This document shows, in pieces, positions 1 to 18,714 of a stretch of DNA of 64,000 nucleotides. Both the position numbers and the translations under genes were made by a program. The notes under the pieces were generated by a model, which was not told the origin of the DNA, did not search any database, and saw only the letters and a list, made by a program, of their open reading frames with translations. Source of the DNA: a virus; IMG/VR virus record IMGVR_UViG_3300042505_000752, positions 64,967 to 128,966 of that record, one strand, 5' to 3'. Positions within the stretch are counted from its first letter, which is position 1, and each line of letters begins with the position of its first letter.

Positions 1-1866
1 ACAAAAGTTGGCACTGTCAGTTCTGGTTCTGGCGTAGGACAGGCACTACAAGGTGCAGTTTCGTATGTAACTCCTGGTGATGTTAGTGGTGTAACTAGTC
101 CTGTTCGCTCTCGTCTTTACTCTGCCATCACTCCTGGTGGTCGCGGCTTGCGTCCTCGTGTCAATAGACCAAATGAGCGCGGATATCGTTGCCCTGAGGG
201 ATATCAGTTTGGTGGTCGTTTTACTGACTCTAAGTGGTCTACATGCGGACGACAGTTATTTGATATTCCATCACTATCACGGACTTTGCTCCAAATTGCT
301 GATAACGCTATTCGTGCAGGGCGTGGTATTGGATATCAAAATCCCGACACAAATCCACTTGGCGGAGCAGAAGTTACTGGCGTTTCATTGATCCAAAGCC
401 GTATGGCAAATGTTCCTCGTGTTGGTGCTTATGATAAAAAGAAGCGTGACGATGGCTTAAAGGCGGCAATTGACGAGTTAGTCAATCCATTGGCTCCAGC
501 GTCAATGATGATTCGGCGCGATGGTTTCCCAATGCAACCAGTCGTTTCTGCTGGAGAATTACGGAAAGTTCCAGACAATCGCAATATGGAAGGCGCAGTC
601 TTTCTATTGTCTGCATCCAATATTGATTCTTTTGGTGGCGATGAATTGGGTTTATTGTCAAATACTGGCGTGAGCACTTTGATTTATGTTCTACCTAATG
701 GTTCTACTGTTCGTATGGACAAAACCCGTGCGTTAACCGTAGGCGAACGGCGCAAGTTGGGCAAGACTGTCAGTTCGGCATCCAAGATTGACAATAGTAA
801 TGATCCATTGGCTCGTCTAAAAATGGTCATTTCAGACTCTGGTGGCGGAATTTCTATCAACAAAGATTTTTCTAAAATTCGCAATGCTGAAGAAGTTGTT
901 GATTCAGGCAAATTTAAAGGAAAGCCTCGCTGGGTTGCTGAAGCGTTTCGCAATAGTGGCAAAAAGCGTACTGTTTCTCCCCAGTCAATTGTTGATGATT
1001 CCAAGTTGGATTCCGAAACAGAAACTCAGGCAAGTAAAAATATCAATGATGTAGAAACCGCTATTGAACATATAAACAACGGTGGAAATCTTTCTGATAT
1101 TAATCCTGCTATTTTGCCTCAGGCTATTCGTCGTGCAAAAGTTTATCGTCAAAAGAATATTGGATCTGGTCGTATTCTTTTTGAGCGTACTGACGGCGGT
1201 GTTTCTTTTATAGAGGTTTCCAATGGAAAGCGCCTTGAGCATCTTGGTGCCCATTTTTCTGCCGCTATCGCTGAACATCTTGAATTGCCTACTCCTAAAA
1301 TCCGCATCATGGGTGAAGGAGACAATCGTCCTTACCTCGTTCAGAATATTGATACTGTCGTGCCAAATGGCAAATTACAATCTATGAAGTTGACAGATAT
1401 GCCAGCCAAAGACCTTGCTGGTATTTTTGTTTCTGATTACTTGACAGATGTTCGCAAACGAAATCCTTCTACTGTTTCGGCTGTTTCTGCTGATGGTAAA
1501 GTTCGCGCAATTGCAACGATGAATGCCCCCTCATCATTGGCTGGTTTATCTGCTGAAGAAATGATTAAGCGTCGTTCCATTGTTATTGGCGATTGGGCAA
1601 AATCAGATGGAAATAATATCCTAAAAGCCATCCAAAATCGCAATGAAGAAGTTCGTCGTCAAATTCTGGCTGTTTATGAAGATTTAATTCAACGAGCACG
1701 CGCTTTTAAATGGGATTCTTACATTAAGCAACTACGGTTAGACGGTAAACTTTCTAGTGCAGAACAAAAGCATATGGATATTGTGAAATCTCTATATGAC
1801 CAAAGACTAGACAATTTAGCCAAGTCTAAGGAATCTTTTGCTAATATTTTGGAGTTAGGCAAATGA
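1..1866 (+). CDS. 5'-truncated large putative virion protein with RCPxGxQFGG module and degenerate HipA/PI4K-like kinase fold
   Basis: Frame 1 is open from base 1. YRCPEGYQFGGRFTD motif; the C-terminal SDYLTDVRKRNPSTV aligns by eye with LDYVLDNQDRHAGNF of the next gene. Confidence 0.7.
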   Translation, partial: TKVGTVSSGSGVGQALQGAVSYVTPGDVSGVTSPVRSRLYSAITPGGRGLRPRVNRPNERGYRCPEGYQFGGRFTDSKWSTCGRQLFDIPSLSRTLLQIADNAIRAGRGIGYQNPDTNPLGGAEVTGVSLIQSRMANVPRVGAYDKKKRDDGLKAAIDELVNPLAPASMMIRRDGFPMQPVVSAGELRKVPDNRNMEGAVFLLSASNIDSFGGDELGLLSNTGVSTLIYVLPNGSTVRMDKTRALTVGERRKLGKTVSSASKIDNSNDPLARLKMVISDSGGGISINKDFSKIRNAEEVVDSGKFKGKPRWVAEAFRNSGKKRTVSPQSIVDDSKLDSETETQASKNINDVETAIEHINNGGNLSDINPAILPQAIRRAKVYRQKNIGSGRILFERTDGGVSFIEVSNGKRLEHLGAHFSAAIAEHLELPTPKIRIMGEGDNRPYLVQNIDTVVPNGKLQSMKLTDMPAKDLAGIFVSDYLTDVRKRNPSTVSAVSADGKVRAIATMNAPSSLAGLSAEEMIKRRSIVIGDWAKSDGNNILKAIQNRNEEVRRQILAVYEDLIQRARAFKWDSYIKQLRLDGKLSSAEQKHMDIVKSLYDQRLDNLAKSKESFANILELGK

Positions 1867-4800
1867 GTAAAATAGTTCTTATTAAAGACGCAATCAAGGA
1901 TGAGCCATACGCTCTTGTGTCTTACGACTCCATGGAGGTTAAGGCATTTGCGCTAACCGACGATGCCGAAGAATGGTCCGAATGGGCTAATCAGTCATGT
2001 AAAACAATTGACGAGATTCGTGAAAGTCTTACCTATTCACTTCAGACAGAACTCCCACGACCAGCAACTGAAATTGAATTAGATGGAATTAAACAATTCA
2101 CTACATCTGAGCGTTTTATTCAAATTAAGTCTGCAATTAGTGAATCAAAACTTGAAATGGTTGGCACATTTAGCCGTCAGAGTCGTCGCTTTGCCGTAAA
2201 GACATTGAAAGATTCGGAACTTCCAGAAAGTCCATCTTCATTGCCTTTGACTTCTTTTAGTGCTCAAAGTCGGCAGGCAATCATTGAGTACAAGGCATTG
2301 TCTTTTAGGGCTGACAATAAGTTTTCGGCTACAGCATTTGAAGCAAAGGGTGCGCGAGCATTATGGGACCCCGCCCTTGGACCGTCTGGTGGATGGCGAT
2401 GCCCTCAAGGTTCTCAGTTTGGTGGATACATCACTGACCGCTTCGGTCGTGGATGCGGTGGAGGGGTTCTCCGTCGTGTTGGGCGAGCATTAGTTGATGC
2501 AGGTCGTGGAATTGACAAATTGGGCGAGGCACGAGGCGCTCGTCGTCTTGGTCGTGCCGCTGATAAACTCAATGATAAGCCTGGTGGCGGACGCGCTCAG
2601 CGTGCCGTTGGTAATGCGGCTAACGCTCTTGAGCGTGGCGCGCAGGGTCTGGTTGGAGACTACAAGCCTGGTGATGCTGTTTCGCGTCGTCGTGGCGTGT
2701 CTGCCCCAGATATTGCTCCCGAGCGTAAGAAGGAAATTGATGACCGCCTGATGGCTATTCAGGCAGAACTTGATGATCTGGTTGATCAGCCCCCGACTGG
2801 CGATATTGAGAAGCGCATTACAGAACTTACCAATGAAAATAAGAAATTGCGTCGCGAGCGAGATGGCGCAATGCCAAAGCGTGTTTCTGCCGTCAAGCCC
2901 GCTCCATCAAAGCGCCGTGTTGTTAAGCCTGAGGCTGGACGCAATGAGCGAGTTCAAGGCAAGCGCCCTGTAAAGAAGCCAGTTACGCAAGGTCGTCGTC
3001 AGGGCGTTCTAGATCGTGCCGCTCAACGACTCGTTGGGGAATATGACCCATCAGAGTATAAGCCTGGTGACAAAAAGCGCATTAAAGACCGCGAAAATCG
3101 TTACGCAAAAGTTTCTGATGAAGCATTGATTAATGCGCTAAAGATGAACTCGCCCAAGGCTATTAAGCCGGGTCAGAATCGTGACATTGAGGCAAACAAG
3201 CGTCAAGAGCGACTTGAAGTTCTTCAGGAAATGCTCAATCGTGGCATTGATATTCCAGAACAATTTAAGAAAGAAGTCAAGCAGTATCGCTTAAAGCCCC
3301 AGCGTAAAAAGCGTGGTGCTAAGGCTGGTAGTCTCCGTAGTCGTGCCGCCAACGCCCTAGAGCGCGCCGCTCAGCGAGTTCTTGCTGGAGACAAGAATAA
3401 GAAGCGTCGTGACCGTAGTCGTCGTAAGCGTGCCGCTGATGCTTTTGAGCGTGGCGCACAGCGAATTCTTGATGGCAAGAAAAAGCCCAAAAAACAAGAT
3501 AATCGCAAAAAGCCACAACCAAACGGTGGGCTTAACCTACCTGGCGGTGGTCGTGGGATTATTGAACCGCGAGATACTGAAGGTTTGCCAAAACCAGGCA
3601 TGGGGGGTATGCGAAAGCCTGGTGAAGGTCAAATTACTCCTGAAGAACTTCAAGATTTAATAGATAGTAATTTAGGTATTACTGGTCTTTCCGAATTACG
3701 CAAACAGTTCAAAGATTATGACGATGCCCAGATTGACAATTTTTTAAGTCGTTTTGTTAAAGCACGCGAAAAAATGAATAATGATAATCCAGAAAGATTA
3801 AAACTTGACAAGTGGATCATCAATCTTGAAATGGAAAAAACCGCTCGTGAACTTGATCGCCTAAAGAATGGCAAGAGAGAACGAGACAATCAGCGTGTCC
3901 GTGCCCGTCGTGCCGTTACCGCTCAAAGCGCATTTACTCCCATTCGTCGTCCACGCCCAAAGAAAATGAAAGGCGACAAGATTGCTTGGGATGATATGGA
4001 TGCCCAGCAAAAAGCACGGATGCGTAATCGTGCTATCGCTGAACTTGACGACCTTGATGCAAGTTGGCGCAAGCGTCTTGGCTTAAAGAGTAATGAAAAA
4101 CTCACTGACAAGATGATTCGTGACTACATTAAAGAACGCGAGAACAACAAGCCTGGTGCTTACATCGGAGTTCTTAAGGCTAACGCCAATGACTGGGGCG
4201 TTCTCAAGGACTATGCAAATGACCTTGAAAATGGGGATATTCTTAATAATCTTGGTCCCAAGCGACGCAAGACACTCGTTGACGACTTGAACAATGCTTC
4301 TACCCCCAAGCGTGTCAAGACACCAAGTTCACCACGCCCCAAGTCTGCCCCAAGTGCAAAAAAGCGTGATGGTCTAAACGATAATGAAAAGAACCGTCTC
4401 AAAGAACTTGACGGACCTGAATTTGATAACCAAGTAGAAGCATTTGACGAAGCAGAGCGTTTGGCTAAAGCAAATAATGAATCTATGGTTGCGTTTGAAC
4501 AAGATGGAAAATTCCGTGTTGTTAAGGCGCAAGACTTTAACGATCTACTAGATGGTATTGATGATGATAGTCGTATGCAAAATGCGATTGGTAGTGTTCG
4601 CCATTTTGATGCCAATGGCAACGAGAGCAAGATTGATGTTTCCGAGTCTGCTCGCGTTAAGCAATCAATTAAAGAATCACTTGGCATTGATGCTCCAGAA
4701 TCGCTTGGTGGCTCAATACCCGATGATCGGTCACGACGAAATGTGCGTAATCGGTTCCCGAATAATGGACTCCCCGATAAGGCATTCTGGCGAGATAAAG

Positions 4801-7800
4801 ACTGGAAGCCTCGTACTGGTGGAGATGATGCAGAAAAGCATGAGCGTAGGTTTGGTCGCTACTTTGATTCCGACGGAAACATCAATGCTCGTGGTCGCTT
4901 TGTTAATGGTCAGTTAGAACAAGAGCGAGCAGAAAAGGCAAAGCCTAGGTTTAGCAAGACACCAGAATCTGTGATTCCAGAATCTGGTCGTAGAAAAACA
5001 TCTACTTATAGTTTTGGTAAACTTCAAGTTTTTGGCGAGGATAATAACGGAAGAGTTCTTTGGAAGGACAAAGATGGCTTTGTTATCCCTGACAACATCG
5101 TAAATGATGAAGCCGTACGACAACGCTACATGCGTTATGCAAAAGAGGGGCGAGATGCCTATCTAAATGCAGAATTTGCACGAAATCTTGGCAAAAAAAT
5201 TGATGACCTTTTAGTTAATAACGACCCTGAGAAGCGTCGTGAATTAAGGAATAATCTTCAAAATCTTATTGAAGATCGGCGTTTGTTGATTTCACGAGAA
5301 AACCCTGTTGCGGTTCGTGGTTCGTGGGCTGGGGAATTAGTTGCATTGCAAAATATGCTTAATGAGTTGGATTCTCATCCAAACGCAGTAGATATTTCTC
5401 CAATGAAAAATGAAGGACTTGATTCCTTACCCAAGGCTTCTATTAAGCGTCGCGATTCATCCCTTATTAAATTGCCTGAATTTAAAAAAGAAAAAGAAGT
5501 ATTCGTTCAATATTATGACCTTCGTAATGACAGGTTTAAAGCACATCTTGAAAACGACAGGCTTGATGATGCAAATATCATGATTGAAGGACTTGCTAAC
5601 GAAATTGATGGGCATAACAGGATGCTGGCTGACCCTGCAATGCCTGAAGAAGACAGGGTTAAAATTTTAGCGCGCCGTTCAGCCGCTCTTGAAAAAGTAG
5701 GTAAGTTTAACCAAGATTTGCAACTTCGTATGGATGAAATTAATAAACGAATTGGCGCAGAAAACGCTGCACGATGGGGAATCCCAAGACTTATGACCAA
5801 CCCCGAAGGTAACGCAACTCCAGATAGTGCTGAGGCACGACTTGCAATCCTTGGAAATAATTACCAGATTAAATTTGCAAAAAACATTCGTCTTGAAGGA
5901 GCAAAAGACCGCGCTGCGGAACTTGCAAAAGAAAAAAATGATGGCGAAGGAATCTATGTTACAAAAGATATAAAGAGTGGTAAATTCTTTTTATTAACTC
6001 GGGCTGATTTTGAAGAAGCAGTTAAAAACGATGCTTTTTCTGAAAATTATGTTGTTGATGCTGTCGTCTATGCCGCAAAGACCCCAGCGCCACCAAAGCC
6101 TCCTAGCGTTGCAAGAATTCCTGATTTGAATGATCCGTTTGATGGATTTAAATCGCGTTTTAGTCCTATGGATTTTGATGCGGATGATAAAGATAATCCA
6201 ATCAAGGCAGCAAGAAAATATGCTGTTGAATTTGATAGTGATTTTGTAGTTGCACAACGCTTGAATGATGGTAAGCAATTTGTTCTTGATGCCCGTGACT
6301 GGAACGACTTTGTAAACTCTCCAAAAATAAATAGTGATGATTTTGTCGCCGTAGGTATTTTTGGTGGGTATGGCAAAGATACCGATGGAATGCCCAAGTT
6401 AAATGATGGCAAAAAACGACTTATTGACGAAATGCAAAGTAGAGATTTAGGTCGCGTTTTCCCCAAGGGAAATCGTGTTTTTGGTAGTGGTGATAAAAAG
6501 GCAAGAGAACGCGCTCAAAAATTTGCCAAGCAGGGAGCAGATGATGATGGGCGCAATCGTTATGTTATTGATACGGGCAAACAATACATGGTCGTCAGTG
6601 AAAAAGAATATCAAGAACTACTAGCGGAATTTAACAATAATGAACAACGCTTAAACGCGACGCTTTCTCCCGAGAAGTTTATTAGAGAACGAAAAGGCAA
6701 CAATGCAGTAGGTAGGGATGCCCTTCTTGGTCCTCAACAAATGCCAATTGATGCCGACGAGTACAAGGATGCTGTCATTGCGGTGCATGACGGCAATGGT
6801 GCTATTGACCAAATACCTGATGCACTATTTGCTGCTGTTATATTTGACGAGAATCTTGAAGATACTATTCGTCCCGGAAATAGGGTGGCTCCGCAACCAT
6901 TAATAAATGATGACGGCAGTCAAGCCACATTTGAGGATATTTTTAGTGGACGAATGAAACCAGGCTACGGCGCTGAATTTGAAAACAAACGATTTAAATT
7001 TAAAAACTTTAAAGATGCGGGCGATTCATACGGTGGAATTTGGTCAGTATATAGAGTTGAGGACAAGCAGACTGGAGAAATTTGGTTTATTAAATCTTCC
7101 ACATATGGTGCCAATGACGCAATGCTGGAAGATATCGGCATGGAGGCTGCTGGTATTTTTAATTTTGCCGCCAAGAATGATGCAAAGCAAATAAGAATTT
7201 CCGCTCCGATTGCTGTTGAAAAAAATGGCAGGCAAGTCAGATGGACTGCCATGCGCGATATTGATCAATGGGATGCTCCAAATGGTGAGGCTTTAACTTG
7301 GGTAGATGCTGGCGATGGTGGAAATATTCAAGGGCGAAGTGTCAGCCTTGAAGATATGGCTGCCGTTTTAGTTCTTGACTATGTTCTAGATAACCAAGAT
7401 AGGCATGCAGGAAACTTTAAAATTGCGACTGATTCAAATGGCGTTCAGCGTCTAGGTGTCATTGACAATGGGCTAATGTTTGGCGGACGGGCATATGACA
7501 TGCTTCCACTAAGTCACGATGATGAAGTCACTCCAATGGGTCTTAATGAACTTGCCGAACAAAGAAAAGCCTTAGACCTTGAGGGTTACAAAAAAGGTAC
7601 TGGCCATATCTTATTACGGAGTCTACCAAGTACATTTATTGATCGTCTTCGTCAGAGTCAATTTGATAGAGATGAATTTAATCTTCAGGTAAAATACTCA
7701 ATTGAAACAATGCGAGAAAGTATTGACAGAATTCTTGATGAGCAAAGACTAAAGGGTAAGGGCATTTCACTTAGCGGTACAGAACTAGCACATTTAAAGG

Positions 7801-7982
7801 CAATGAAATTAGTTGCTGACGCTCGCTTGAAATATCTTGAATCAAACCCAGATGCATTCCTTGAGGTTTTTAACATAACTGGTTCAATACCTAGTCCAAT
7901 AAATGCCCCAATGTCGCCAATTCGTCGTCCTAGGGGATTAACTGGTCGTCAGGTTGGTTTGCCATCGGGTGGAGGATTATAA
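1863..7982 (+). CDS. 2039-aa multidomain putative virion protein with C-terminal HipA/PI3-4K-like kinase
   Basis: WRCPQGSQFGG module, K/R-rich linker, WFIK...LEDIG...DRHAGN...IDNG kinase motifs. Confidence 0.75.
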   Translation: MSKIVLIKDAIKDEPYALVSYDSMEVKAFALTDDAEEWSEWANQSCKTIDEIRESLTYSLQTELPRPATEIELDGIKQFTTSERFIQIKSAISESKLEMVGTFSRQSRRFAVKTLKDSELPESPSSLPLTSFSAQSRQAIIEYKALSFRADNKFSATAFEAKGARALWDPALGPSGGWRCPQGSQFGGYITDRFGRGCGGGVLRRVGRALVDAGRGIDKLGEARGARRLGRAADKLNDKPGGGRAQRAVGNAANALERGAQGLVGDYKPGDAVSRRRGVSAPDIAPERKKEIDDRLMAIQAELDDLVDQPPTGDIEKRITELTNENKKLRRERDGAMPKRVSAVKPAPSKRRVVKPEAGRNERVQGKRPVKKPVTQGRRQGVLDRAAQRLVGEYDPSEYKPGDKKRIKDRENRYAKVSDEALINALKMNSPKAIKPGQNRDIEANKRQERLEVLQEMLNRGIDIPEQFKKEVKQYRLKPQRKKRGAKAGSLRSRAANALERAAQRVLAGDKNKKRRDRSRRKRAADAFERGAQRILDGKKKPKKQDNRKKPQPNGGLNLPGGGRGIIEPRDTEGLPKPGMGGMRKPGEGQITPEELQDLIDSNLGITGLSELRKQFKDYDDAQIDNFLSRFVKAREKMNNDNPERLKLDKWIINLEMEKTARELDRLKNGKRERDNQRVRARRAVTAQSAFTPIRRPRPKKMKGDKIAWDDMDAQQKARMRNRAIAELDDLDASWRKRLGLKSNEKLTDKMIRDYIKERENNKPGAYIGVLKANANDWGVLKDYANDLENGDILNNLGPKRRKTLVDDLNNASTPKRVKTPSSPRPKSAPSAKKRDGLNDNEKNRLKELDGPEFDNQVEAFDEAERLAKANNESMVAFEQDGKFRVVKAQDFNDLLDGIDDDSRMQNAIGSVRHFDANGNESKIDVSESARVKQSIKESLGIDAPESLGGSIPDDRSRRNVRNRFPNNGLPDKAFWRDKDWKPRTGGDDAEKHERRFGRYFDSDGNINARGRFVNGQLEQERAEKAKPRFSKTPESVIPESGRRKTSTYSFGKLQVFGEDNNGRVLWKDKDGFVIPDNIVNDEAVRQRYMRYAKEGRDAYLNAEFARNLGKKIDDLLVNNDPEKRRELRNNLQNLIEDRRLLISRENPVAVRGSWAGELVALQNMLNELDSHPNAVDISPMKNEGLDSLPKASIKRRDSSLIKLPEFKKEKEVFVQYYDLRNDRFKAHLENDRLDDANIMIEGLANEIDGHNRMLADPAMPEEDRVKILARRSAALEKVGKFNQDLQLRMDEINKRIGAENAARWGIPRLMTNPEGNATPDSAEARLAILGNNYQIKFAKNIRLEGAKDRAAELAKEKNDGEGIYVTKDIKSGKFFLLTRADFEEAVKNDAFSENYVVDAVVYAAKTPAPPKPPSVARIPDLNDPFDGFKSRFSPMDFDADDKDNPIKAARKYAVEFDSDFVVAQRLNDGKQFVLDARDWNDFVNSPKINSDDFVAVGIFGGYGKDTDGMPKLNDGKKRLIDEMQSRDLGRVFPKGNRVFGSGDKKARERAQKFAKQGADDDGRNRYVIDTGKQYMVVSEKEYQELLAEFNNNEQRLNATLSPEKFIRERKGNNAVGRDALLGPQQMPIDADEYKDAVIAVHDGNGAIDQIPDALFAAVIFDENLEDTIRPGNRVAPQPLINDDGSQATFEDIFSGRMKPGYGAEFENKRFKFKNFKDAGDSYGGIWSVYRVEDKQTGEIWFIKSSTYGANDAMLEDIGMEAAGIFNFAAKNDAKQIRISAPIAVEKNGRQVRWTAMRDIDQWDAPNGEALTWVDAGDGGNIQGRSVSLEDMAAVLVLDYVLDNQDRHAGNFKIATDSNGVQRLGVIDNGLMFGGRAYDMLPLSHDDEVTPMGLNELAEQRKALDLEGYKKGTGHILLRSLPSTFIDRLRQSQFDRDEFNLQVKYSIETMRESIDRILDEQRLKGKGISLSGTELAHLKAMKLVADARLKYLESNPDAFLEVFNITGSIPSPINAPMSPIRRPRGLTGRQVGLPSGGGL

Positions 7983-7983
7983 A

Positions 7984-8325
7984 ATGGAACAAGATATTCA
8001 AAGAACAGAAAAATCGTTAAAAGATTTAAAAAAGGAAATTACATATCCTGCCGTTATTTACCATGAATCAGAAGCGGGAAATATTGCTCCAATTTTAGTA
8101 CTTGAACGAAAAGGCAGAATTACTCATTATTTTTGGGATGATGTAAATCGCTATGATTCTGATATGTACAATGTTGTTGGCGATATTGTAAAACTATCTA
8201 CAAATTCACAGTCAACGGCAAAGCAATTCTTTATTGACAATGCCACTCCTGTAGATATTAATAGAGTTATAGATCAGGCTAAGAAAAATAAGATAGTCAA
8301 ACCAGAACCTAAAGGCAAAAAATAA
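7984..8325 (+). CDS. small protein, candidate kinase partner/immunity protein
   Basis: GGAGGA RBS at 7971-7976; ATG 1 nt after the upstream stop. Confidence 0.7.
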   Translation: MEQDIQRTEKSLKDLKKEITYPAVIYHESEAGNIAPILVLERKGRITHYFWDDVNRYDSDMYNVVGDIVKLSTNSQSTAKQFFIDNATPVDINRVIDQAKKNKIVKPEPKGKK

Positions 8326-8327
8326 AA

Positions 8328-11300
8328 ATGACTACCGATTGCGAAACTTGTCGTCCTCTTGTAAAGGTCATGAACCCCCAGATGTCTACTGACCGCAGGC
8401 GGTTTATGATTGAGAGCAAGGCTGCCGAATATCGCAAACACATGGGTCAGCCGAGCGGTTTGTTGCAAAAGGGTGCTCGGGCAATATTTGACCCTAAACT
8501 TGGTCCGTCTGGTGGATATCGCTGTCCTGAAGGGAGCCAGTTTGGTGGTTACATTACCGACCGCTTCGGCAGAGGCTGTGGTGGGGGTATTATTCGCCGT
8601 GTCGGGCGAGCCTTTGGAAAACTAGGTCGTGGATTAGATAACATTGCAGACAGGCGTGACCGTAGTCGTTTGGGTCGTGCCGTCAATCGCCGTAGCAAGC
8701 CCAATCGCGTTACTCGCGCCGCTGGTGCTCTAGAGCGTGGAGCACAAAGACTTGTTGGCGAATACAAGCCTGGTGACTACAAACCAGGTGACGGCGGTCG
8801 TCGTAATAGGCGCAACCTACCTGGTGGATCATCCCTGAGGCGTTCTGCTGTTCCACGCAAACCTAAGCGTGAACGCAAACTGCCCAAAGACGGGGACAAG
8901 AAGCCTCGCACCCAAGGGGCAACTCCCAAAAAGCGCCCCATTGTTGAACGCGCTGCTGAAGGTCTAGAACGCGCTGCTCAGCGTGTTCTAGATGAAGATC
9001 GCAAGAAAAGAACACAAGGCGCTAAGCCTGCCAAACCCAAGAAGCCTGTTGCTCCTAAGGTTCCTTCGCTGAAGCCAAATCTCTCAGAAGATAAAAAACC
9101 AAACATCACTGACATCAATGATATTGACTGGGATAATTTAACTCCCGAACAGCGTGACGAAATTCAAGGCATCCGTTGGGATGCTTTTAGTGAACTTGAA
9201 GCCGAAATGTCCAAGTACATGGGTGTTCCAGCGGCTCGTATGGACCCTGATGGGTTTGTAAAACGAAATGAAAAAAATAAAAATGTTGAAAAATATGCAG
9301 GGGATGCTCGTAAGTGGAGACAATTACAAAACGACTTTGAAGATATGCCAGCAGAAGCAATTAAAGAGATTGACTGGACCGACGAAGAACGCAAGAAAAT
9401 TCTTGATGTCGTTAATGGGAATGCAAAGCCCAAGAAGCCCAAGACCCGTGGTGCTGACTTCTGGGAACGACGCAAGAATAACAAGCCGATTAAGCCTGAA
9501 GAATTAGATGTTGAAGATGCCCCAGAGATTTTTTCAAGCAAGCCAGACGGCGTACCCGAAAGTGCTCGTAATGTTAAGGCTTGGGAGCAGGCGTTTAAGG
9601 ATGAAATAGATAAGTATTTTGCTGAAAAAAATGTAGATCGCCTTGAAAAATTAAAAAAGACAATAGATTTGATTCTTAACAAAGATGTCATGAATCTATC
9701 TTCTGCTATGCGTCGGATGCTTCAGGAAAAAATTAATGACATAGAGAAAAAGACTGTTGCCCTTCGTGCACGAAAAGCACGAGGTGCACGCACTGCCACA
9801 CCAAAACCAAAACTTCCTAGTCTTGTAGGTAAGCCAGTAAAGCGTAATCCAAAAATTAATCGTATTAAAGATAATGTTATTGATGCTTTGCGTATCAACA
9901 ATATGCGTGACAATGCCATGGGCGACTTTGCACGCGACGCAATTGGCGATGGCTTAATTGCTTTTCCTGAGAATATTTTTAATGATGACATCAAAAATGT
10001 GACAGATGCAGTGAAGTGGCTTGATGATGGAAAATCATTATACGAAATTCCACAACATTATTGGGCTGAAGCAATAAATGAACATGTAGACAGTCGTAAT
10101 CCTGGTCCAAAGCAATATAAAAGAATTGATATCAATAATCCAGGTGCTATGAAATCTATTAACATGTATGAAAAATTAAATCAAGATGGCAGTGGTAGTG
10201 GGACTGGTGTTGTTTTTGCTCGTGCTCCAGGTAATGCACGGGATGGCATGGGCGAAGTTTTAGGTCAGCAAGTCCTCAATGCCCTTGGCATGAATGTTGC
10301 TCCAGCGCGGTTTGATGGAATTGTAAGAGAACAAAATAATGGCAGAGATGTACCAGTTGCTGTAATGCCATTTGCTTGGAACAGGGCTGCTGCTGGAAAA
10401 ATAGACCGAGGTAAGGCTGGTTATAACTTTGACAGGTCTGTCTTTGACCAATTTGAAGATAAAGCGTTACCTATGCGGTTAGCAAATTTATTAGGTAATT
10501 ATTTTATGGGAATTAGCGACAGGCACCACAATAATGGGATGGCAGGGGTTATTGATGGTCAGCCTTATATTGTCCCTATTGACCTTGGGTGGAACGGCAT
10601 AAAAAGAAAATTTTACGAGTATCAAGGCGATGATTGGCTTCATGGATTTTCAATGGACCCCGACTTGGTTGGCGTTATTAAGTCTCATTTAGCAAAACTT
10701 GAACCCAAAGAGGCTGAAAAACAACGCAATAAAATAATTGAAGTTTTTGATGGCATGATCTTACGAGGCGATGCAATACTTGCTCAAGGAAAAGATAAAT
10801 TTATTGAGGATGCCATAGGAATGATGCATCTTGGTGCTGATGCAGTGCCAAATATGCAAATGCGTAATGGAGTTGACAGAAAAGAACTTGAATCTATGAT
10901 GAAAGAAAAAGCATTAGGCATATTTACTGCTATGGAATCCAATATTGCATCATTGAAAAAAGAAAGAACAGATTTATTTGCTAAATGGGGATTAAAAAAT
11001 GCTCCCCCATTAGGAGTTCTTGAAGTAGTTAGCAAACCAAAGCCAAAAAACCCCAAGGCACCTAAGCCAAAAGCGCCCGCCCCTGCAAAGATTACCAATA
11101 ATGTGGCTTCAAAGGGTAAGAAAATTGGACCGCTCCCAGCACTTGTTGTAGCAGAACCACAAAAACGATACAACAAGGTTCCTGTACTTGGTAAAGCATC
11201 TGGAGACAATCCCCTACCAATTCCAGATGACATTGTTAATTCTGAAATTACAAACTTGGATGACGCAGTTAGATGGCTTGATGAGGGTAATCGTATTTCT

Positions 11301-12308
11301 CAAGTTCCTCAAAAGTTTTGGGCGCAAGCCATAAACGGTCATGTTGATGGAAATGCACCCAATAAACAATTTACTCGCCTTGCACAACAAGGTGGAATTA
11401 TAAAAATGACGCAAATTTTTGGTGCTCTTGATAACGATGGTAATTTTGTAAATCAGGGATTCTTATTGCAATACGATGGTGATGACCCCAAAAACGCTGT
11501 TGAGGTTTTTGCTCTTAACATTATGCATGGGCTTGGATTAAATGTTGAGCCTGCACGCTTTGACGGAGTTTTTAGACCTGACGAAGTTCCAGTTGCAGTT
11601 ATGCCATTTGCTTGGAACAACGCACCAGAAGGTGATGTTGTTCTTCCAAAAGATTTACCCCAGTGGGATGTAAATCGTTCTGATATTTATGTTGATGAAG
11701 ACTATATTCCAAATTTTGAACATCAACAATTTGACAATTTGCCAGACAAGGCATACCCGCAAAGAATTGCCGCAATGATAGGTAACTTCATTTTGCAAAT
11801 TCCAGATAGACATAATCAAAACGGCATGGGGGGAATGTTTGGTGGCAAGCCCCATGTTGTTCCAATTGACTTAGGTTGGGCTGGAAAAAATGGATATATT
11901 GGAAATATGAACATGTTCTTTTCACAACAATTCAAAATTGATAGGACTTTTGATGCGGACAACGGAGACATGGAGCCAGATTTCCGTAAAAATATTTCAA
12001 ATCATTGGTCATCAATAAGTGATGATGCCGAAAGAGTTAGACAACAAAAAGTTATTGTTGATCTTTATGATGACATGATCGCTCGTGGAAAAGCAATGAC
12101 TCAAGATAAAGATAAATTCATTAATGACCTGTTAATTGGACTTCACGATGCAGGAAATAACGCAATAATTAGAAACAAAGCAGAACAAGAAGCAAGAAAT
12201 ATGCTCAAGATGATGATGAGGTCAATTGCTAATATGGAAAGCGAAAGAGATAATTACCTTAAAAGTATTTTTAGTATTGATGAAGCCGTTATAAAAGGTG
12301 GTGCATGA
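8328..12308 (+). CDS. 1326-aa putative virion protein with two tandem HipA/PI3-4K-like kinase-fold domains
   Basis: YRCPEGSQFGG module; DRHHNN...IDLG and DRHNQN...IDLG. Confidence 0.75.
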   Translation: MTTDCETCRPLVKVMNPQMSTDRRRFMIESKAAEYRKHMGQPSGLLQKGARAIFDPKLGPSGGYRCPEGSQFGGYITDRFGRGCGGGIIRRVGRAFGKLGRGLDNIADRRDRSRLGRAVNRRSKPNRVTRAAGALERGAQRLVGEYKPGDYKPGDGGRRNRRNLPGGSSLRRSAVPRKPKRERKLPKDGDKKPRTQGATPKKRPIVERAAEGLERAAQRVLDEDRKKRTQGAKPAKPKKPVAPKVPSLKPNLSEDKKPNITDINDIDWDNLTPEQRDEIQGIRWDAFSELEAEMSKYMGVPAARMDPDGFVKRNEKNKNVEKYAGDARKWRQLQNDFEDMPAEAIKEIDWTDEERKKILDVVNGNAKPKKPKTRGADFWERRKNNKPIKPEELDVEDAPEIFSSKPDGVPESARNVKAWEQAFKDEIDKYFAEKNVDRLEKLKKTIDLILNKDVMNLSSAMRRMLQEKINDIEKKTVALRARKARGARTATPKPKLPSLVGKPVKRNPKINRIKDNVIDALRINNMRDNAMGDFARDAIGDGLIAFPENIFNDDIKNVTDAVKWLDDGKSLYEIPQHYWAEAINEHVDSRNPGPKQYKRIDINNPGAMKSINMYEKLNQDGSGSGTGVVFARAPGNARDGMGEVLGQQVLNALGMNVAPARFDGIVREQNNGRDVPVAVMPFAWNRAAAGKIDRGKAGYNFDRSVFDQFEDKALPMRLANLLGNYFMGISDRHHNNGMAGVIDGQPYIVPIDLGWNGIKRKFYEYQGDDWLHGFSMDPDLVGVIKSHLAKLEPKEAEKQRNKIIEVFDGMILRGDAILAQGKDKFIEDAIGMMHLGADAVPNMQMRNGVDRKELESMMKEKALGIFTAMESNIASLKKERTDLFAKWGLKNAPPLGVLEVVSKPKPKNPKAPKPKAPAPAKITNNVASKGKKIGPLPALVVAEPQKRYNKVPVLGKASGDNPLPIPDDIVNSEITNLDDAVRWLDEGNRISQVPQKFWAQAINGHVDGNAPNKQFTRLAQQGGIIKMTQIFGALDNDGNFVNQGFLLQYDGDDPKNAVEVFALNIMHGLGLNVEPARFDGVFRPDEVPVAVMPFAWNNAPEGDVVLPKDLPQWDVNRSDIYVDEDYIPNFEHQQFDNLPDKAYPQRIAAMIGNFILQIPDRHNQNGMGGMFGGKPHVVPIDLGWAGKNGYIGNMNMFFSQQFKIDRTFDADNGDMEPDFRKNISNHWSSISDDAERVRQQKVIVDLYDDMIARGKAMTQDKDKFINDLLIGLHDAGNNAIIRNKAEQEARNMLKMMMRSIANMESERDNYLKSIFSIDEAVIKGGA

Positions 12309-12700
12309 TGGCTCAATATTTAATTATTTTTGGACCTTTTGGAACACCACAGAATAATTCTAAAAATGCTGTTGCTTTTAAAACTTCTGGTTCAAATATT
12401 CAAATTACCTGTTCTAAAAACAAAATGAATTATTGGAAAAATCGCATTAATGAATCTTTAGTTTTGGCAAGTTCATTTAAAGGTAATGAAGTTCAATTAG
12501 ACAATTTTGCAAAAAACAGTAGTTATGTATCTTCTATATTTTTTGATGATTCTAATTATGATGAGTACAAAAAACTTTTTGAATCAGTTAATGGTGTTAA
12601 AAGTGTAGTAAAAATTGACAGAGTACCAACTTATGACGAACCAGATTTTGACCCTAAAAAAGTTGAAAATTTCTATAAAAAGTTTGAGAAGAAAAAATAA
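12305..12700 (+). CDS. small protein, candidate partner 1 (paralog of next gene)
   Basis: ATGA overlap with the upstream gene; alignable by eye with 12700..13029. Confidence 0.75.
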   Translation: MMAQYLIIFGPFGTPQNNSKNAVAFKTSGSNIQITCSKNKMNYWKNRINESLVLASSFKGNEVQLDNFAKNSSYVSSIFFDDSNYDEYKKLFESVNGVKSVVKIDRVPTYDEPDFDPKKVENFYKKFEKKK

Positions 12701-13029
12701 TGGCTGAGTATCTTATTTATCATGGCGACTTTGGTTCCAGTATTGACGACCCCGGTCTTATGTCTATTAAGGCTGATGGGGTTAAGTTAACCATTCGTGC
12801 ATCTCGCAACATGATGGAAGAGTGGAAGGGTCGTATTGAAAATTCTAGAGTTTTGCAGGGTTCGGTAAATGACGGTCAAGTAGACCTTGAAAGATATATT
12901 TTTGCTAACAAGTATTCCACATGGACATTCTTTACTCAAGAAGAATTTGATGACTATAAAAAAGTGTATAATTCTGTAAAAGGTTCAACTGTAGTTGTGA
13001 CTATCAAGCCAGAGAAAAAGGGCGACTGA
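12700..13029 (+). CDS. small protein, candidate partner 2
   Basis: TAATG coupling; MAEYLIYHGDFG versus MAQYLIIFGPFG. Confidence 0.75.
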   Translation: MAEYLIYHGDFGSSIDDPGLMSIKADGVKLTIRASRNMMEEWKGRIENSRVLQGSVNDGQVDLERYIFANKYSTWTFFTQEEFDDYKKVYNSVKGSTVVVTIKPEKKGD

Positions 13030-13030
13030 A

Positions 13031-16000
13031 ATGGCAAAGATGCGCGCGTCATCCAAAGAAGATGCAATGAAGATTGCACGCTATGTTGGATGTTCTGGCG
13101 CACACCAAGATAAGAAGGGGAATTGGATACCTTGTGCCAATCCCGAAGATCTTGTAGAGATTCTAGATAAATCTGCAAGAAACTCTACTGAAAAATTAAC
13201 TAAAAAGAAGCGTCGTCGGTTTGTTAATGGTCAATGGGAAAGACTCGGAGAACGAGGTCCTATCAGTATTGACACAATTGACGGCGGTGGACTTGTGTCT
13301 GGTATGGGCAAGTCCTTGACTCAATGGTTTAAAGAAGAATGGGTTGATATTTCAAGACCCAAAAAAGGTGGCGGTTTTGAGCCGTGCGGACGAGATGATG
13401 CAGACAAGGGCAAATACCCCAAGTGCGTTCCAGCATCACGAGCCAGCAATATGTCAGAAGAAGAAATTCGCTCTGCTGTTTCACGGAAAAGAAGAGCAGA
13501 ATCTACACAGAGTAGAGATGACAAAAAGCCTATTTATGTTCCTACTGATAAAAAGAACGACCCATTCGTTTTGGATGAAAAATCAGCAACACCCACAAAT
13601 CCAGAACTTTATGCACGGGTTAAGGCTGAAGCAAAAAAGAAGTTTGATGTTTACCCCTCTGCCTATGCAAACGCTTGGTTAGTAAGGGAATACAAAAAAC
13701 GAGGTGGTGGATATCGTTCTGAAAAAGCAGACGATGGCGATTATGAAGAATCTGTTGAAGATCTTACCGAAATGCAATTATCCGATTTTATTGATTGGGT
13801 AGATCAAAAAGAAAAAGCAGAAAAAGTATGCCCTCCAGCAACTTCTGACATTGGCTTAAATATCAAGAATCGTCAGAATGCCATCAATACTGCTGGTTAT
13901 GGTCCCCTAAACCCGAAAGAACCCAATGTGGACTTTTGGGAAAAGAAGGCAAAACGCTGGTCCGTAACGATTGAAGAATCCAAGAAACAAAAGTGCGGAA
14001 ACTGTGCTGTCTTTATTAAGACTCCTCGGATTCTTGAATGCATTGAGTCAGGTCTTGGTAATGAGGCTGGAGACACTGCTTGGGATGCAATCAATGCTGG
14101 CGACCTTGGATATTGCGAGGCATTTGACTTCAAGTGTGCTTCTGCCCGTACCTGTGATGCATGGGTCGGTGGAGGTCCAGTAACTGTTGAAAAGGGCAAG
14201 CAAGAGGAGAAGGCAGAAACTTCCACGATTATCATTGGTCGTGCCAAGCCTCGCATTGGCGATCCTGATGTTTACACCGACCCCAACTCTGCTCGTCTGC
14301 GTTCTCGTAAACTTGGTTGCATTGGTATCGCTCGTAGAGAAACGCCAGATGGAGAAGTTGTCTGGACACCCTGCACAAATATCTCAGATCAACGCAGATA
14401 CCAAGGCGAAACACCATTAGGTCAGCGAGATGAGGCTCGGCGTTTTGCTGACAGACTTGCTGAAGTTGGCGGTCCTGATCGTAAGCGCCGACGCATGCGT
14501 AAGTATAAGAGCCTTGAATTTGCAACAGACATTAAGGCATTTCGGACCTTAGGTTCAAGTATGAATAGTCGCGGCATTAGCGGTAATTGTCGCCAATTTA
14601 CTGGCATTGATGGTGACGGAGATGGATTCGTATGTAATCCCGCAACTCGCGAGGACGACTTGCCCCTTACGGACACTCGGAAAATTTTTAAGCGTGGCGG
14701 TAAAATGCTGTCAAGGGAAGAATTGGTAGAGCAAGACGAAACAATGCTTAATATGTTTGCCAAAGGTGAACCTTTATCGCGAATTGCTGAAGAAGTAGGT
14801 CTTGACAAAAGAGAAGTTGAATTTTTAATTAAAAATTTCCGTAAACAACAACCAAAAGTTGCATTTACAATATTCAACAATCGCGATATCAATATTCAAA
14901 AAAAACGCGAAGAGCGCAGAAAATTAGCGCTTGAGAATGTTAGGCGAGAGGCAAATGCCAACCGCAAATTAAATGCAAGAGGCGAAGACCCTACGCCAGA
15001 ATCTGATGATGATCTTGATTTTACTCTTGACCCAGATAAGGTTCCGCAATATCTTAAAAAGAATTTTGCTAAATATATGCAACGCTTAAAAGACCCTGAA
15101 TTTGCTGATGAAATAAAAAAAATTGCTGATGATTTGCGTGCTGGTCTTGGTTTGGCTGGAACGGCAAAAAAATACAAACGAGACTCAGCATTTATAGAAA
15201 TTGTTCGTAGAAATGAAAAAATTACAAAAACAAAAAAACTACAAAGAGAACTCCTAGGCGTTCCTGATTTTAACAATGATACCGATGACCCCGATTTCAC
15301 TCTTGACCCCGACAAAGTTCCAAAATTTTTACAAAGGAATTTGCTTAACAATATTAGGATAGCAAGAAGTCCTGAGTTTGCGGAAGAAAGAAAGAAAATT
15401 GCTGACGACTTACGCCTTGGTCTTGGAATTGCTTCCGTAAGATTGAAATACAAACGAGACTCGGCATTTGTAGACATAGTTCGCAGGCTTGAAAAAATTC
15501 CAAAATCAAGAGAAAACAAAAAAGTTGATCCTAAAATTAGACAGGATGTTGTTGACCTTGTAGATAAATTGATTAAAGATGATAATCCATTCATGTCGGT
15601 TGCCGAAATCGCAAAAGAATTTAAAATTACTGGAATAGATGCGCGTCGGATTATTAATGCTGCAAAATTGGAAAAATATTTTGATTTGCACAATAAATAT
15701 ACAGACGCAAAAAGAAAAAAACTTTTTGCTGAAGTTGCTGAACTTCATAAACTTGATCTTACATATGATGAAATTGGCAAGCGTTTAGGAATTAGTGAAA
15801 ACTCAGTAAATCACATTGCGAAAAAAATGAAACTACCTAAAAGAAAGTTTGTGACAAAACGGAATGTTCCTCAAGTAATAAGGAGGGGTGGTGATGTAAT
15901 TCCTCGTTCTTTAGCAATGAAACAAAATAAAGAAATGCTTGATCTATATGAGCGAGGCTGGTCTATTACGGATATTGCTAAAAAAATGGGAATTGGTGTT

Positions 16001-16273
16001 GCTACTGTAAAACAAATTCTTATAAAATTTGAAAAAGATAACAAAGTTCGCCTTCGTGGAAATAATGTTATTGAAAAAGAAAATCAAATAAGAAAACTTC
16101 TAAAAGAAGGTTTGCATCCTCGCGAGATTATGCGAGACATTATTGGCAATATTCCGTATGGCAGAATTTTAGAAATTGCAAAAGAAGAGGATATTGAAAT
16201 CCCATCTATGCGTAAATTTAAATCCGACAATCAAAACTTCAATTCATTTGAGAACGATGATTATTTTTACTAA
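13031..16273 (+). CDS. modular head-region polyprotein (Cys-rich modules, DUF5872-like module, HTH array)
   Basis: Two GCxG...WxPC modules, NPELYARVKAEAK...GGGY, CGNC...C...C module, several HTH-like segments. Confidence 0.65.
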   Translation: MAKMRASSKEDAMKIARYVGCSGAHQDKKGNWIPCANPEDLVEILDKSARNSTEKLTKKKRRRFVNGQWERLGERGPISIDTIDGGGLVSGMGKSLTQWFKEEWVDISRPKKGGGFEPCGRDDADKGKYPKCVPASRASNMSEEEIRSAVSRKRRAESTQSRDDKKPIYVPTDKKNDPFVLDEKSATPTNPELYARVKAEAKKKFDVYPSAYANAWLVREYKKRGGGYRSEKADDGDYEESVEDLTEMQLSDFIDWVDQKEKAEKVCPPATSDIGLNIKNRQNAINTAGYGPLNPKEPNVDFWEKKAKRWSVTIEESKKQKCGNCAVFIKTPRILECIESGLGNEAGDTAWDAINAGDLGYCEAFDFKCASARTCDAWVGGGPVTVEKGKQEEKAETSTIIIGRAKPRIGDPDVYTDPNSARLRSRKLGCIGIARRETPDGEVVWTPCTNISDQRRYQGETPLGQRDEARRFADRLAEVGGPDRKRRRMRKYKSLEFATDIKAFRTLGSSMNSRGISGNCRQFTGIDGDGDGFVCNPATREDDLPLTDTRKIFKRGGKMLSREELVEQDETMLNMFAKGEPLSRIAEEVGLDKREVEFLIKNFRKQQPKVAFTIFNNRDINIQKKREERRKLALENVRREANANRKLNARGEDPTPESDDDLDFTLDPDKVPQYLKKNFAKYMQRLKDPEFADEIKKIADDLRAGLGLAGTAKKYKRDSAFIEIVRRNEKITKTKKLQRELLGVPDFNNDTDDPDFTLDPDKVPKFLQRNLLNNIRIARSPEFAEERKKIADDLRLGLGIASVRLKYKRDSAFVDIVRRLEKIPKSRENKKVDPKIRQDVVDLVDKLIKDDNPFMSVAEIAKEFKITGIDARRIINAAKLEKYFDLHNKYTDAKRKKLFAEVAELHKLDLTYDEIGKRLGISENSVNHIAKKMKLPKRKFVTKRNVPQVIRRGGDVIPRSLAMKQNKEMLDLYERGWSITDIAKKMGIGVATVKQILIKFEKDNKVRLRGNNVIEKENQIRKLLKEGLHPREIMRDIIGNIPYGRILEIAKEEDIEIPSMRKFKSDNQNFNSFENDDYFY

Positions 16274-17781: not shown

Positions 17782-17839
17782 CGCCGTTCTGGGACAAGTT
17801 TAGGTTGTATAATTAGGTAGTCGTTTTAGGGAGAGTTTG

Positions 17840-18709
17840 ATGACGGTTTCTCAAAGTACTCGTTTGCAGGTATACAGATGGACTGAGGATACAGATGCAT
17901 TTACTCGTGCACAAATGGACCTCAGCCATTCAAATATTGAGTCATATGCTGCCAAGTTGACTACTGGCACTAGTTTGCCTGCTGTTTCTTCCGCATATGC
18001 CCGTTCTTTCTTTTTTAATACATCTACGGATAAACTTTATTTTTACGATGTTGGCGATGATACTGGAACATGGCGCGAAATTACATTAGATGCGTCAATT
18101 AATAAGTCAATTTTTACAACTGCTGGGCAAATTATTTATTCAACTGCTTCTGGCACTCCAGCAATCCTTGCTGCTGGGACTAGTGGTCAGTTTTTAACTA
18201 CTTCAGGAACTGCTGTAAGTTGGGCAGAAGCAGTAACTCCAACTGGAACTCAGACATTAACGAATAAGACACTTACTTCGCCAAACTTAAATACTCCAAC
18301 AGTTGTTCAGCCAGTATTGAGCCGAGCAATTGAGTCATGGACATATGCAACTACTGCACCAAGTGGCACCCTTACACTTGACCTTGCTGTATCCACTTCG
18401 TATTTCTATAACAATGCCACTGGCTCCAGTACAACATGGACTCCAACTTTTTCCAACATTACATCACTCCTTGATGTTAATAATGAGGCATTGACTGTTG
18501 CTGTTATTAATAAAGTAAGTTCTACCGCAGCGTTTGCTGCCAGTATCACAATTACTGGAGCAACAACAACAACACTTCTTTGGCAAGGAGGAGTTACGCC
18601 AAGTGCTTCAAATACTAGTGCTGGAACGGATGCTTATATCTATACAATAGTTCGTACTGCATCTAATACTTATACGGTATTTGCTTCCCGTACACGATTC
18701 GCATTATAA
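17840..18709 (+). CDS. tail/head fiber-like structural protein
   Basis: Thr/Ser-rich; TGTQTLTNKTLTSP motif; C-terminal beta-sandwich typical of aquatic phage fibers. Confidence 0.65.
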   Translation: MTVSQSTRLQVYRWTEDTDAFTRAQMDLSHSNIESYAAKLTTGTSLPAVSSAYARSFFFNTSTDKLYFYDVGDDTGTWREITLDASINKSIFTTAGQIIYSTASGTPAILAAGTSGQFLTTSGTAVSWAEAVTPTGTQTLTNKTLTSPNLNTPTVVQPVLSRAIESWTYATTAPSGTLTLDLAVSTSYFYNNATGSSTTWTPTFSNITSLLDVNNEALTVAVINKVSSTAAFAASITITGATTTTLLWQGGVTPSASNTSAGTDAYIYTIVRTASNTYTVFASRTRFAL

Positions 18710-18714
18710 ATAAT

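Follow-up and report, generated by a model that had tools for sequence, protein, structure and literature searches.

What do three giant open reading frames (ORFs) that end in kinase-like domains do among the head genes of a phage? The question is raised by a DNA stretch of 64,000 nucleotides, hereafter called the window, which covers positions 64,967 to 128,966 of the IMG/VR virus record IMGVR_UViG_3300042505_000752 and is the right half of this record (128,966 bp, estimated completeness 87%). The first 13,029 nucleotides of the window hold ORF1, ORF2 and ORF3 together with three small ORFs, s1, s2 and s3, and had originally been predicted to encode a capsid-delivered kinase effector/immunity system. 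Here we confirm the observation behind the original prediction and find its interpretation partly supported. In particular, we estimate at about 55% the probability that the ORF2- and ORF3-type proteins are cargo of the head module, that is, kinase effectors delivered from the capsid and accompanied by cognate regulators.

All three giant ORFs lie on the plus strand and contain the cysteine-containing N-terminal motif RCPxGxxFGGxxTD. ORF1 (645 aa, 1..1866) is a conserved head-module protein cut by the window edge; the gene starts 71 nt upstream, and its first 24 codons are outside. ORF2 (2039 aa, 1863..7982) consists of an acidic N-terminus, an N-terminal module (N-module, aa ~131-215), a basic linker (aa 216-850), repeats (aa 851-1625), and the kinase unit K2. 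ORF3 (1326 aa, 8328..12308) has the N-module at aa ~19-100, followed by a basic linker, a middle region, the kinase unit K3a, a Pro/Lys linker and a second unit, K3b. The N-terminal regions of ORF2 and ORF3 are 40% identical over ~260 residues (E 4e-31), while the similarity of ORF1 to them is confined to the core GYRCPEGxQFGGxxTD (E 1e-5). Both linkers are strongly basic, having an isoelectric point (pI) of 10.7 and a net charge of +44 for residues 216-580 of ORF2, and 11.6 and +31 for residues 101-260 of ORF3. Hence, the N-module and basic linker originally ascribed to all three proteins are both present in ORF2 and ORF3, and what ORF1 shares of the N-module is the core motif. The core of ORF1 (~340 aa), which carries the motif RCPEGYQFGGRFTD at window positions ~181-228, is a stand-alone head-module protein in related phages, and homologues of ORF1 in the contigs L016, L017, L020 and L021 are matched with E from 1e-49 to 1e-56. 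A search of PDB sequences with the ORF1-family profile yielded no match.

The linkers and the repeat region have further internal structure. A motif of the type A-L-E-R-G-A-Q-R-L-V-G-E-Y-K-P-G-D occurs in three to four copies in the ORF2 linker (window 2625-3500) and in two copies in the ORF3 linker (8727-9000); a role in protease cleavage or in binding is conceivable. Residues 850-1625 of ORF2 (window 4400-6720) contain three to four copies of a short module ending like GKFRVVKAQDFNDLL.

As predicted, ORF1, ORF2 and ORF3 end in one, one and two kinase-like units, respectively: K1 (1006..1863), K2 (6738..7979), K3a (9963..11027) and K3b (11223..12305), all on the plus strand. In the alignment of K2, K3a and K3b, the E, DRH..N and ID.G positions are invariant. 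K1 is more distant; it matches the family profile, built from K2, K3a and K3b of this phage and of a sister phage (contig L008), with hhalign probability 87% and E 3.7e-6 over 266 columns. The AlphaFold model of K2 has pLDDT 79.7 and pTM 0.83, and that of K3a has pLDDT 63. The four lead-in strings quoted in the original prediction, among them INDVETAIEHINNGG of K1, are all present in the proteins and correspond to the first helix of the unit in both models.

Foldseek searches with the K2 and K3a models returned kinases only, the K3a match being PI3K catalytic subunits (E 2.8e-5). An independent structural aligner placed K2 closest to CotH (Z 15.5, root-mean-square deviation 3.7 over 273 aligned residues, 9% identity), followed by HipA (Z 12.4), CtkA (12.3), PI4KIIIb (11.8), MavQ (11.6), PI4KIIa (11.1) and actin-fragmin kinase (10.6); over CotH, HipA, CtkA, PI4K, ATM and Vps34 the Z scores ranged from 8 to 15.5. 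At the sequence level, the best PDB match of the family profile was the catalytic and activation loops of PI4KIIIb (E 0.004), and phmmer searches of PDB sequences with single kinase units gave only noise. The Pfam family PF00454 (PI3_PI4_kinase) matched ORF2 at E 1.3e-5 with 25.6 bits, under its gathering cut-off of 27.1 bits, and did not match ORF1 or ORF3; among 41 relatives, it matched five at E up to 1e-4 (best E 9.1e-14). No Pfam family exceeded its own cut-off in the ORF1-3 proteins, and there were no matches of the HipA Pfam family or Pfam CotH to the window kinase proteins. The models thus confirm the predicted kinase fold and point to the bilobal fold of atypical kinases from the PI3K/PI4K-CotH-HipA-CtkA group, while no single known kinase family claims these units. 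With CotH, HipA/HipT, CtkA, PI4K and MavQ they share this fold, a D-x-H-x-x-N type catalytic loop and the metal-binding Asp, but only 9-16% of sequence identity. On the other hand, the suggestion that the units poison translation in the manner of HipA does not go beyond analogy, as CotH is the best match, PI4K, CtkA and MavQ are about as close as HipA, and no HipB-like gene was found.

The catalytic residues are retained in three of the units. K2 is a canonical atypical kinase unit with the lysine in IWFIK, the glutamate in LEDIG, and the motifs DRHAGN and IDNG. K3a has DRHHNN and PIDLGW, and K3b has DRHNQN and PIDLGW; at the position of the beta3 lysine they have Ala (VVFAR) and Gln (FLLQY), respectively, with a lysine on an earlier strand (GAMKS and GIIKM). 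To place these residues in the context of the family, we searched 1.84 billion proteins with the family profile, and obtained 197 cluster representatives, in which the kinase domain is nearly always C-terminal in a protein of 600-3000 aa. Of 198 family domains, all have the catalytic-loop Asp and Asn; the metal-binding Asp is found in 196, the Glu of helix C in 188, and the His in 185. In the alignment of K2-type units, K, E, D, N and D are invariant, including the beta3 Lys and the helix-C Glu. Across the family, no domain has a lysine at both positions: the beta3 lysine alone is found in 104 domains, the earlier one alone in 45, and neither in 14. This pattern fits a relocated catalytic lysine, as in WNK kinases, although shared ancestry of the 45 domains with the earlier lysine may also account for it. 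All four K2-type proteins of the phage group (ORF2, its L008 counterpart, P0010 described below, and the one from L013) end in Gly-Gly-Leu (window 7971-7979).

K1 is different. The IDxG motif and the catalytic residues Asp, His and Asn are lost from it, no partner gene follows it, and the extension that carries it is missing from the ORF1 homologues of more distant phages. Being degenerate and absent elsewhere, K1 is not an equal fourth effector, contrary to the original prediction. Still, it is kept between the sister phages with omega (the ratio of nonsynonymous to synonymous substitution rates) of 0.15, and is therefore a retained pseudokinase.

Each catalytically competent unit has one ORF of ~100 aa immediately downstream. 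ORF2 is followed by s1 (113 aa from the ATG start, 7984..8325, plus strand), the small partner of K2, and ORF3 by s2 (131 aa, 12305..12700, plus strand) and s3 (109 aa, 12700..13029, plus strand). As originally noted, s2 and s3 are paralogues (36% identity, E 1e-20); s1 is unrelated to them. The correspondence holds across contigs at the level of families: K3-type units are followed by partner families A (including s2 and s3) and B, K2-type units by C (including s1) and D, a third kinase type by E and G, and one further kinase (L017_g2) by F. In particular, orthologues of s1 follow K2-type kinases in L008 and L013. Judging by these assignments, the partner family tracks the kinase subtype. Two accounts of the origin of the partners were rejected. 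Their unification into one superfamily has only weak hints in its favour (E 0.004 for A and B, 0.0018 for C and D), and their descent from a split-off kinase subdomain, as in HipS, is ruled out by an hhalign probability of 0.1%. Searches of the ESM Atlas with s1 and s3 gave no usable match.

Binding between a kinase and its cognate partner was addressed by complex prediction. K2 with s1 scored 0.58 against 0.00 for the best control, with at least 31% of contacts agreeing between runs and partner pLDDT of at least 67. Of 80 solved complexes used as a benchmark, 58 reached the same mark, as did 2 of 110 mismatched pairs, yet the range up to 0.60 contained only 7 of the 80 solved complexes and both mismatches that passed. 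The prediction hints at binding of s1 to K2. A second small ORF after a single-kinase gene is present in two contigs (L021:10116-10409 and L022:7989-8282), at the place occupied in L019 by a third kinase gene; a kinase may have been lost there, leaving its partner as an orphan.

The kinase units are the variable part of an otherwise conserved locus. Between the window phage and its sister phage, the capsid protein is 98.6% identical and ORF1 97% identical (omega 0.07), while the identity is 61-68% for K2, 64-74% for K3a and ~40% for K3b; for the partners s1, s2 and s3 it is 81%, 36% and 92%, respectively. In the segment at window positions ~11064-12692, comprising K3b and s2, only three short weak nucleotide matches to the sister phage remain (70-74% over 76-145 nt), and the flanking DNA is 78% and 92% identical. 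Hence, K3b and s2 have been replaced as one block and constitute an exchangeable cassette. The synonymous divergence (dS) is 0.15-0.2 in the N-terminal parts, with omega of 0.05-0.1, as compared to 1.07 in K2, 0.81 in K3a and 2.9 in K3b, with omega of 0.23, 0.26 and 0.20, respectively. The combination of high dS with low omega means that these are old alleles moved by recombination and maintained under purifying selection. Similarly, in ten close orthologues of ORF3, the N-module is 88-100% identical and K3a 66-94% identical, and K3b falls into two allele classes with 40% identity between them; one orthologue, P0174, combines the K3b allele of the window with a different K3a. Two allele classes of s2 are seen in the protein database as well. 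The originally proposed layout of a conserved N-terminus and variable C-termini is therefore borne out by the comparison of loci from related phages.

A fifth kinase-partner pair is encoded outside the window, at genome positions 3380-5754 on the minus strand, among genes for primase-helicase, ThyX and a methylase in the replication region. The kinase, P0010 (680 aa, 3712-5754, contig L009), is of the K2 type, matches the C-terminus of ORF2 with E 1e-99, and has both DRHxxN and IDxG, as do K2, K3a and K3b. The gene after it encodes P0011, which is paralogous to s1 (31% identity, E 9e-19). One copy of the GKFRVVKAQDFNDLL-type module is found just before the kinase domain. P0010 has no ORF3-type N-module; instead, it starts with the leader EPYDPDAIDADNDGIVQEGTAWERP, which also heads 24 of 150 family representatives (pattern EPYDPDAxDADGDGIVQEGTAWERP). 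The ORF3-type N-module is found in 74 of the 150, and therefore the same effector domain is combined with at least two N-terminal modules.

The head-module layout recurs in eight more distant phage contigs, where the kinase-ending gene is in every case followed by one ORF of ~100 aa; therefore, it is not due to chance. The order of head genes is kept in L016-L022. A tblastn search of 50,697 GenBank phages with ORF3, the ORF1 core, K2 and the P0010 leader gave no match, scans of metagenome contigs revealed no relatives, and a further scan of viral contigs recovered only the sister phage. At the structural level, the K2 model matches kinase-like domains in proteins of other phages (E 1e-5 to 4e-4), which are annotated as HK97 portal, head-morphogenesis (MuF) or ADP-ribosyltransferase proteins; one of these comes from Mycobacterium phage Onyinye.

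The surrounding genes are those of a head module. The large terminase gene, on the opposite strand, is followed by genes for the portal-MuF protein, S78 prohead protease and unknown proteins of 521 aa and 207 aa, then by ORF1, ORF2, s1, ORF3, s2 and s3, a 1080-aa protein with helix-turn-helix (HTH) motifs, and the HK97-type major capsid protein. The region between the protease and capsid genes is the usual site of genes for the scaffold and internal head proteins, and this gene order places ORF1-3 there. The giant ORFs are not tape-measure or tail proteins, a possibility we considered and rejected, since the tape measure and tail fibres are encoded on the other strand at genome positions 20-44 kb. 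The MuF (head morphogenesis) domain is fused to the C-terminus of the portal (residues 667-752; genome 58604-60874, L007:3605-5875, plus strand, upstream of the window), and none of ORF1-3 matches MuF (PF04233), so that the predicted independence of MuF holds. From ORF1 to s3, the genes overlap or are separated by 1-3 nt. There is no sign of internal promoters or terminators in the cluster, as sites resembling them are no commoner than in shuffled sequence. No tRNA genes were found in the window, and PADLOC reported nothing meaningful.

The nearest cultured relatives of the capsid protein are from Brevibacterium and Gordonia myoviruses (~50% identity), and the genome carries two WhiB genes. 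Together, these indicate an actinophage, as yet uncultured. Across the 129 kb genome, we found no integrase or resolvase and no recombinase of the tyrosine or serine type, which suggests that the phage is probably virulent (lytic).

Two neighbouring loci deserve mention. The HTH protein (1080 aa, window 13031-16273, plus strand), encoded directly upstream of the capsid gene, has DUF3721 and DUF5872 at its N-terminus and at least four HTH motifs, of the sigma-70 region 4 and resolvase types, in its C-terminal half, which diverges faster than the N-terminal half (omega 0.29 as compared to 0.04). It occupies the expected site of the scaffold gene and may be another packaged DNA-binding cargo protein. 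In L020 (6007-7680), a DUF5872-like segment is inserted into the ORF1 homologue, while in the window it belongs to the HTH protein, and therefore domains have been shuffled among head-module proteins. The two genes after the capsid gene (window 17837-20439), encoding proteins of 290 aa and 574 aa, the latter with an fn3 domain, form a second fast-evolving spot, as the identity between the sister phages is only 65% and 59%, compared to 98.6% for the capsid protein.

How could such proteins function? In the reading that we favour, the N-module and the very basic linker would place the protein inside the capsid together with the DNA, and the kinase domains would be ejected along with the genome. 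They would then phosphorylate host targets ahead of all phage gene expression, contributing to host takeover or counter-defence. The kinase domains are kept as divergent alleles and exchanged as cassettes between otherwise nearly identical phages. The small downstream product most likely binds and restrains its kinase, or regulates it in some other way, in the producing cell. Points in favour of delivery are that the genes belong to the head module, that the N-module is homologous to the ORF1 core, that the linkers are basic, and that kinase-like domains occur in proteins of other phages, some of them annotated as head proteins.

Several points weigh against this reading. The argument for packaging, and for capsid delivery as originally proposed, is one of gene position and analogy, and the N-module matched nothing known. 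P0010, located among replication genes and devoid of the N-module, means that not all of these kinases need be capsid cargo. CotH, to which K2 is structurally closest, is not a toxin but a kinase acting in assembly, and the substrate could be either protein or lipid. K3a and K3b, which lack the canonical lysine, could be pseudokinases. The co-variation of K3b and s2 could result from their adjacency alone. Finally, the complex prediction for K2 and s1 lends weak support to the cognate binding expected from the original prediction, with one of three runs scoring 0.14.

A true polymorphic toxin-immunity system, as originally envisaged, would consist of virion-delivered, growth-arresting HipA-like kinases and small ORFs that confer immunity on phage-carrying or infected cells. 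It would explain the conserved N-terminus, the variable C-terminus and the small downstream gene, the exchange of cassettes, and the stand-alone P0010-P0011 pair, and HipA is indeed among the structural neighbours; nevertheless, we consider it improbable. MuF polymorphic toxins occur exclusively in temperate phages, and the word "kinase" is missing from the text of the survey that described them (Jamet et al., 2017, PMC5576092). The phage studied here is apparently virulent, and classical immunity is therefore unlikely. Killing a newly entered cell would bring the phage no obvious gain; the partners are translationally coupled to late head genes, unlike what would be expected for the expression of immunity; and no HipA family match or HipB-like gene was found. 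In another explanation, the kinases would act in the producing cell on phage head or core proteins, similarly to CotH, which phosphorylates spore-coat proteins and drives their assembly. The small ORFs would then time or limit the activity, and the basic linkers would be a possible substrate. The structural match to CotH, the location between the protease and capsid genes, the long basic linkers, and the purifying selection on the degenerate K1 are all consistent with this. Still, we give the assembly role little credence, since the kinase domains, being old alleles and the most variable part of a head module that is otherwise 97-99% conserved, better suit a host-facing role, and a paralogous kinase-partner pair is found in the replication region.

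Two other explanations concern the small ORFs and the substrate. With the giant proteins still taken as cargo, the small ORFs could be dedicated chaperones or adaptors that keep the kinase domain competent for packaging or ejection, similar to the chaperones of type III secretion effectors, rather than inhibitors. The pairing of every effector domain with one small protein, encoded immediately behind it, the acidic pI of 4.6-5.4 in 10 of 21 distinct small ORFs, and the hint of binding agree with such a function. However, s1 and s2 are basic (pI 8.8-9.5), P0010 and P0011 are encoded outside the head module and P0010 is without the N-module, and the dead K1 has no partner, yet would still need to be packaged. 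On balance, we regard the chaperone function as unlikely, if worth keeping in mind. As for the substrate, the units could be lipid kinases of the phosphoinositide type, with the host membrane as their target. Actinobacteria make phosphatidylinositol, and the host is actinobacterial as judged from the WhiB genes and the relatives of the capsid protein. The only sequence-level matches are to PI3K/PI4K, and the structural ones include PI4KIIIb, PI4KIIa, MavQ and Vps34 (Z 10-11.8). On the other hand, the protein kinases CotH, HipA, CtkA and actin-fragmin kinase score as well or better, and no lipid-binding element was identified; a lipid substrate seems rather doubtful.

Several known systems resemble the locus in part. 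Polyvalent proteins of phages (Iyer et al., 2017, PMC5512222) are also giant multidomain proteins presumed to enter the capsid and to be delivered along with the DNA, as would be the case here; some have kinase domains that may phosphorylate host proteins, and neighbouring cassettes suggest recombinational variation. By contrast, the polyvalent kinase is of the Ser/Thr/Tyr type, has lost the C-terminal subdomain and is found in (pro)phages of Verrucomicrobia, Chlamydia and Bacteroidetes, while the units described here are PI3K/PI4K-CotH-HipA-like, retain a helical C-terminal part, reside in actinophage head modules, are joined to another N-terminal module, and have one small partner each. MuF toxins, like ORF2 and ORF3, combine a conserved N-terminal head-associated module and a variable C-terminal effector with a small ORF directly downstream, which follows 89% of toxin genes (PMC5576092). 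They differ in that the kinase proteins have no MuF domain, which is on the portal instead, and in that no integrase was found in this genome. The locus is set apart from both MuF toxins and polyvalent proteins by its kinase family, by its N-terminal module and by a partner for every kinase domain, tandem units included. More generally, C-termini varied by recombination on a conserved N-module and a small cognate gene directly downstream of the effector domain, both seen here, are features of polymorphic toxins (Zhang et al., 2012, PMC3482391). By this analogy, the C-terminal domains would be toxic and neutralized by the partner.

In comparison to HipBA and HipBST, in which the HipB or HipS antitoxin is encoded upstream, the partner gene comes after the kinase gene, and its product lacks an HTH domain and homology to any part of the kinase, so that neither the HipB nor the HipS arrangement is reproduced. 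Another phage kinase, gp0.7 of T7, phosphorylates host proteins including translation factors (cited in PMC5512222). We propose phosphorylation of host proteins by a phage kinase here as well. The gene for the T7 protein lies outside the head module and is expressed early, once the phage has entered, and gp0.7 is not known to have polymorphic cassettes or a cognate small partner.

Proteins injected with phage DNA act before phage genes are read, and therefore are prime candidates for counter-defence and host takeover. To our knowledge, few of those described are enzymes. Here, a whole lineage of phages whose hosts are uncultured devotes ~10 kb of its head module to exchangeable kinases and their matched partners. 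We tentatively suggest, as a possibility that goes beyond the reading favoured above, a capsid-delivery system of actinophages that has not been described before. In such a system, the RCPxGxxFGGxxTD module would load exchangeable atypical kinases, some of them with a relocated lysine, and cognate small inhibitors would hold the kinases inactive until ejection; host proteins or phosphatidylinositol lipids would then be phosphorylated, disarming the defence or seizing the cell. Already the favoured reading, if true, would imply a new delivery module and a new branch of atypical kinases with an apparently relocated catalytic lysine, and the kinase-inhibitor pairing would be directly testable in E. 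coli or a model actinobacterium.

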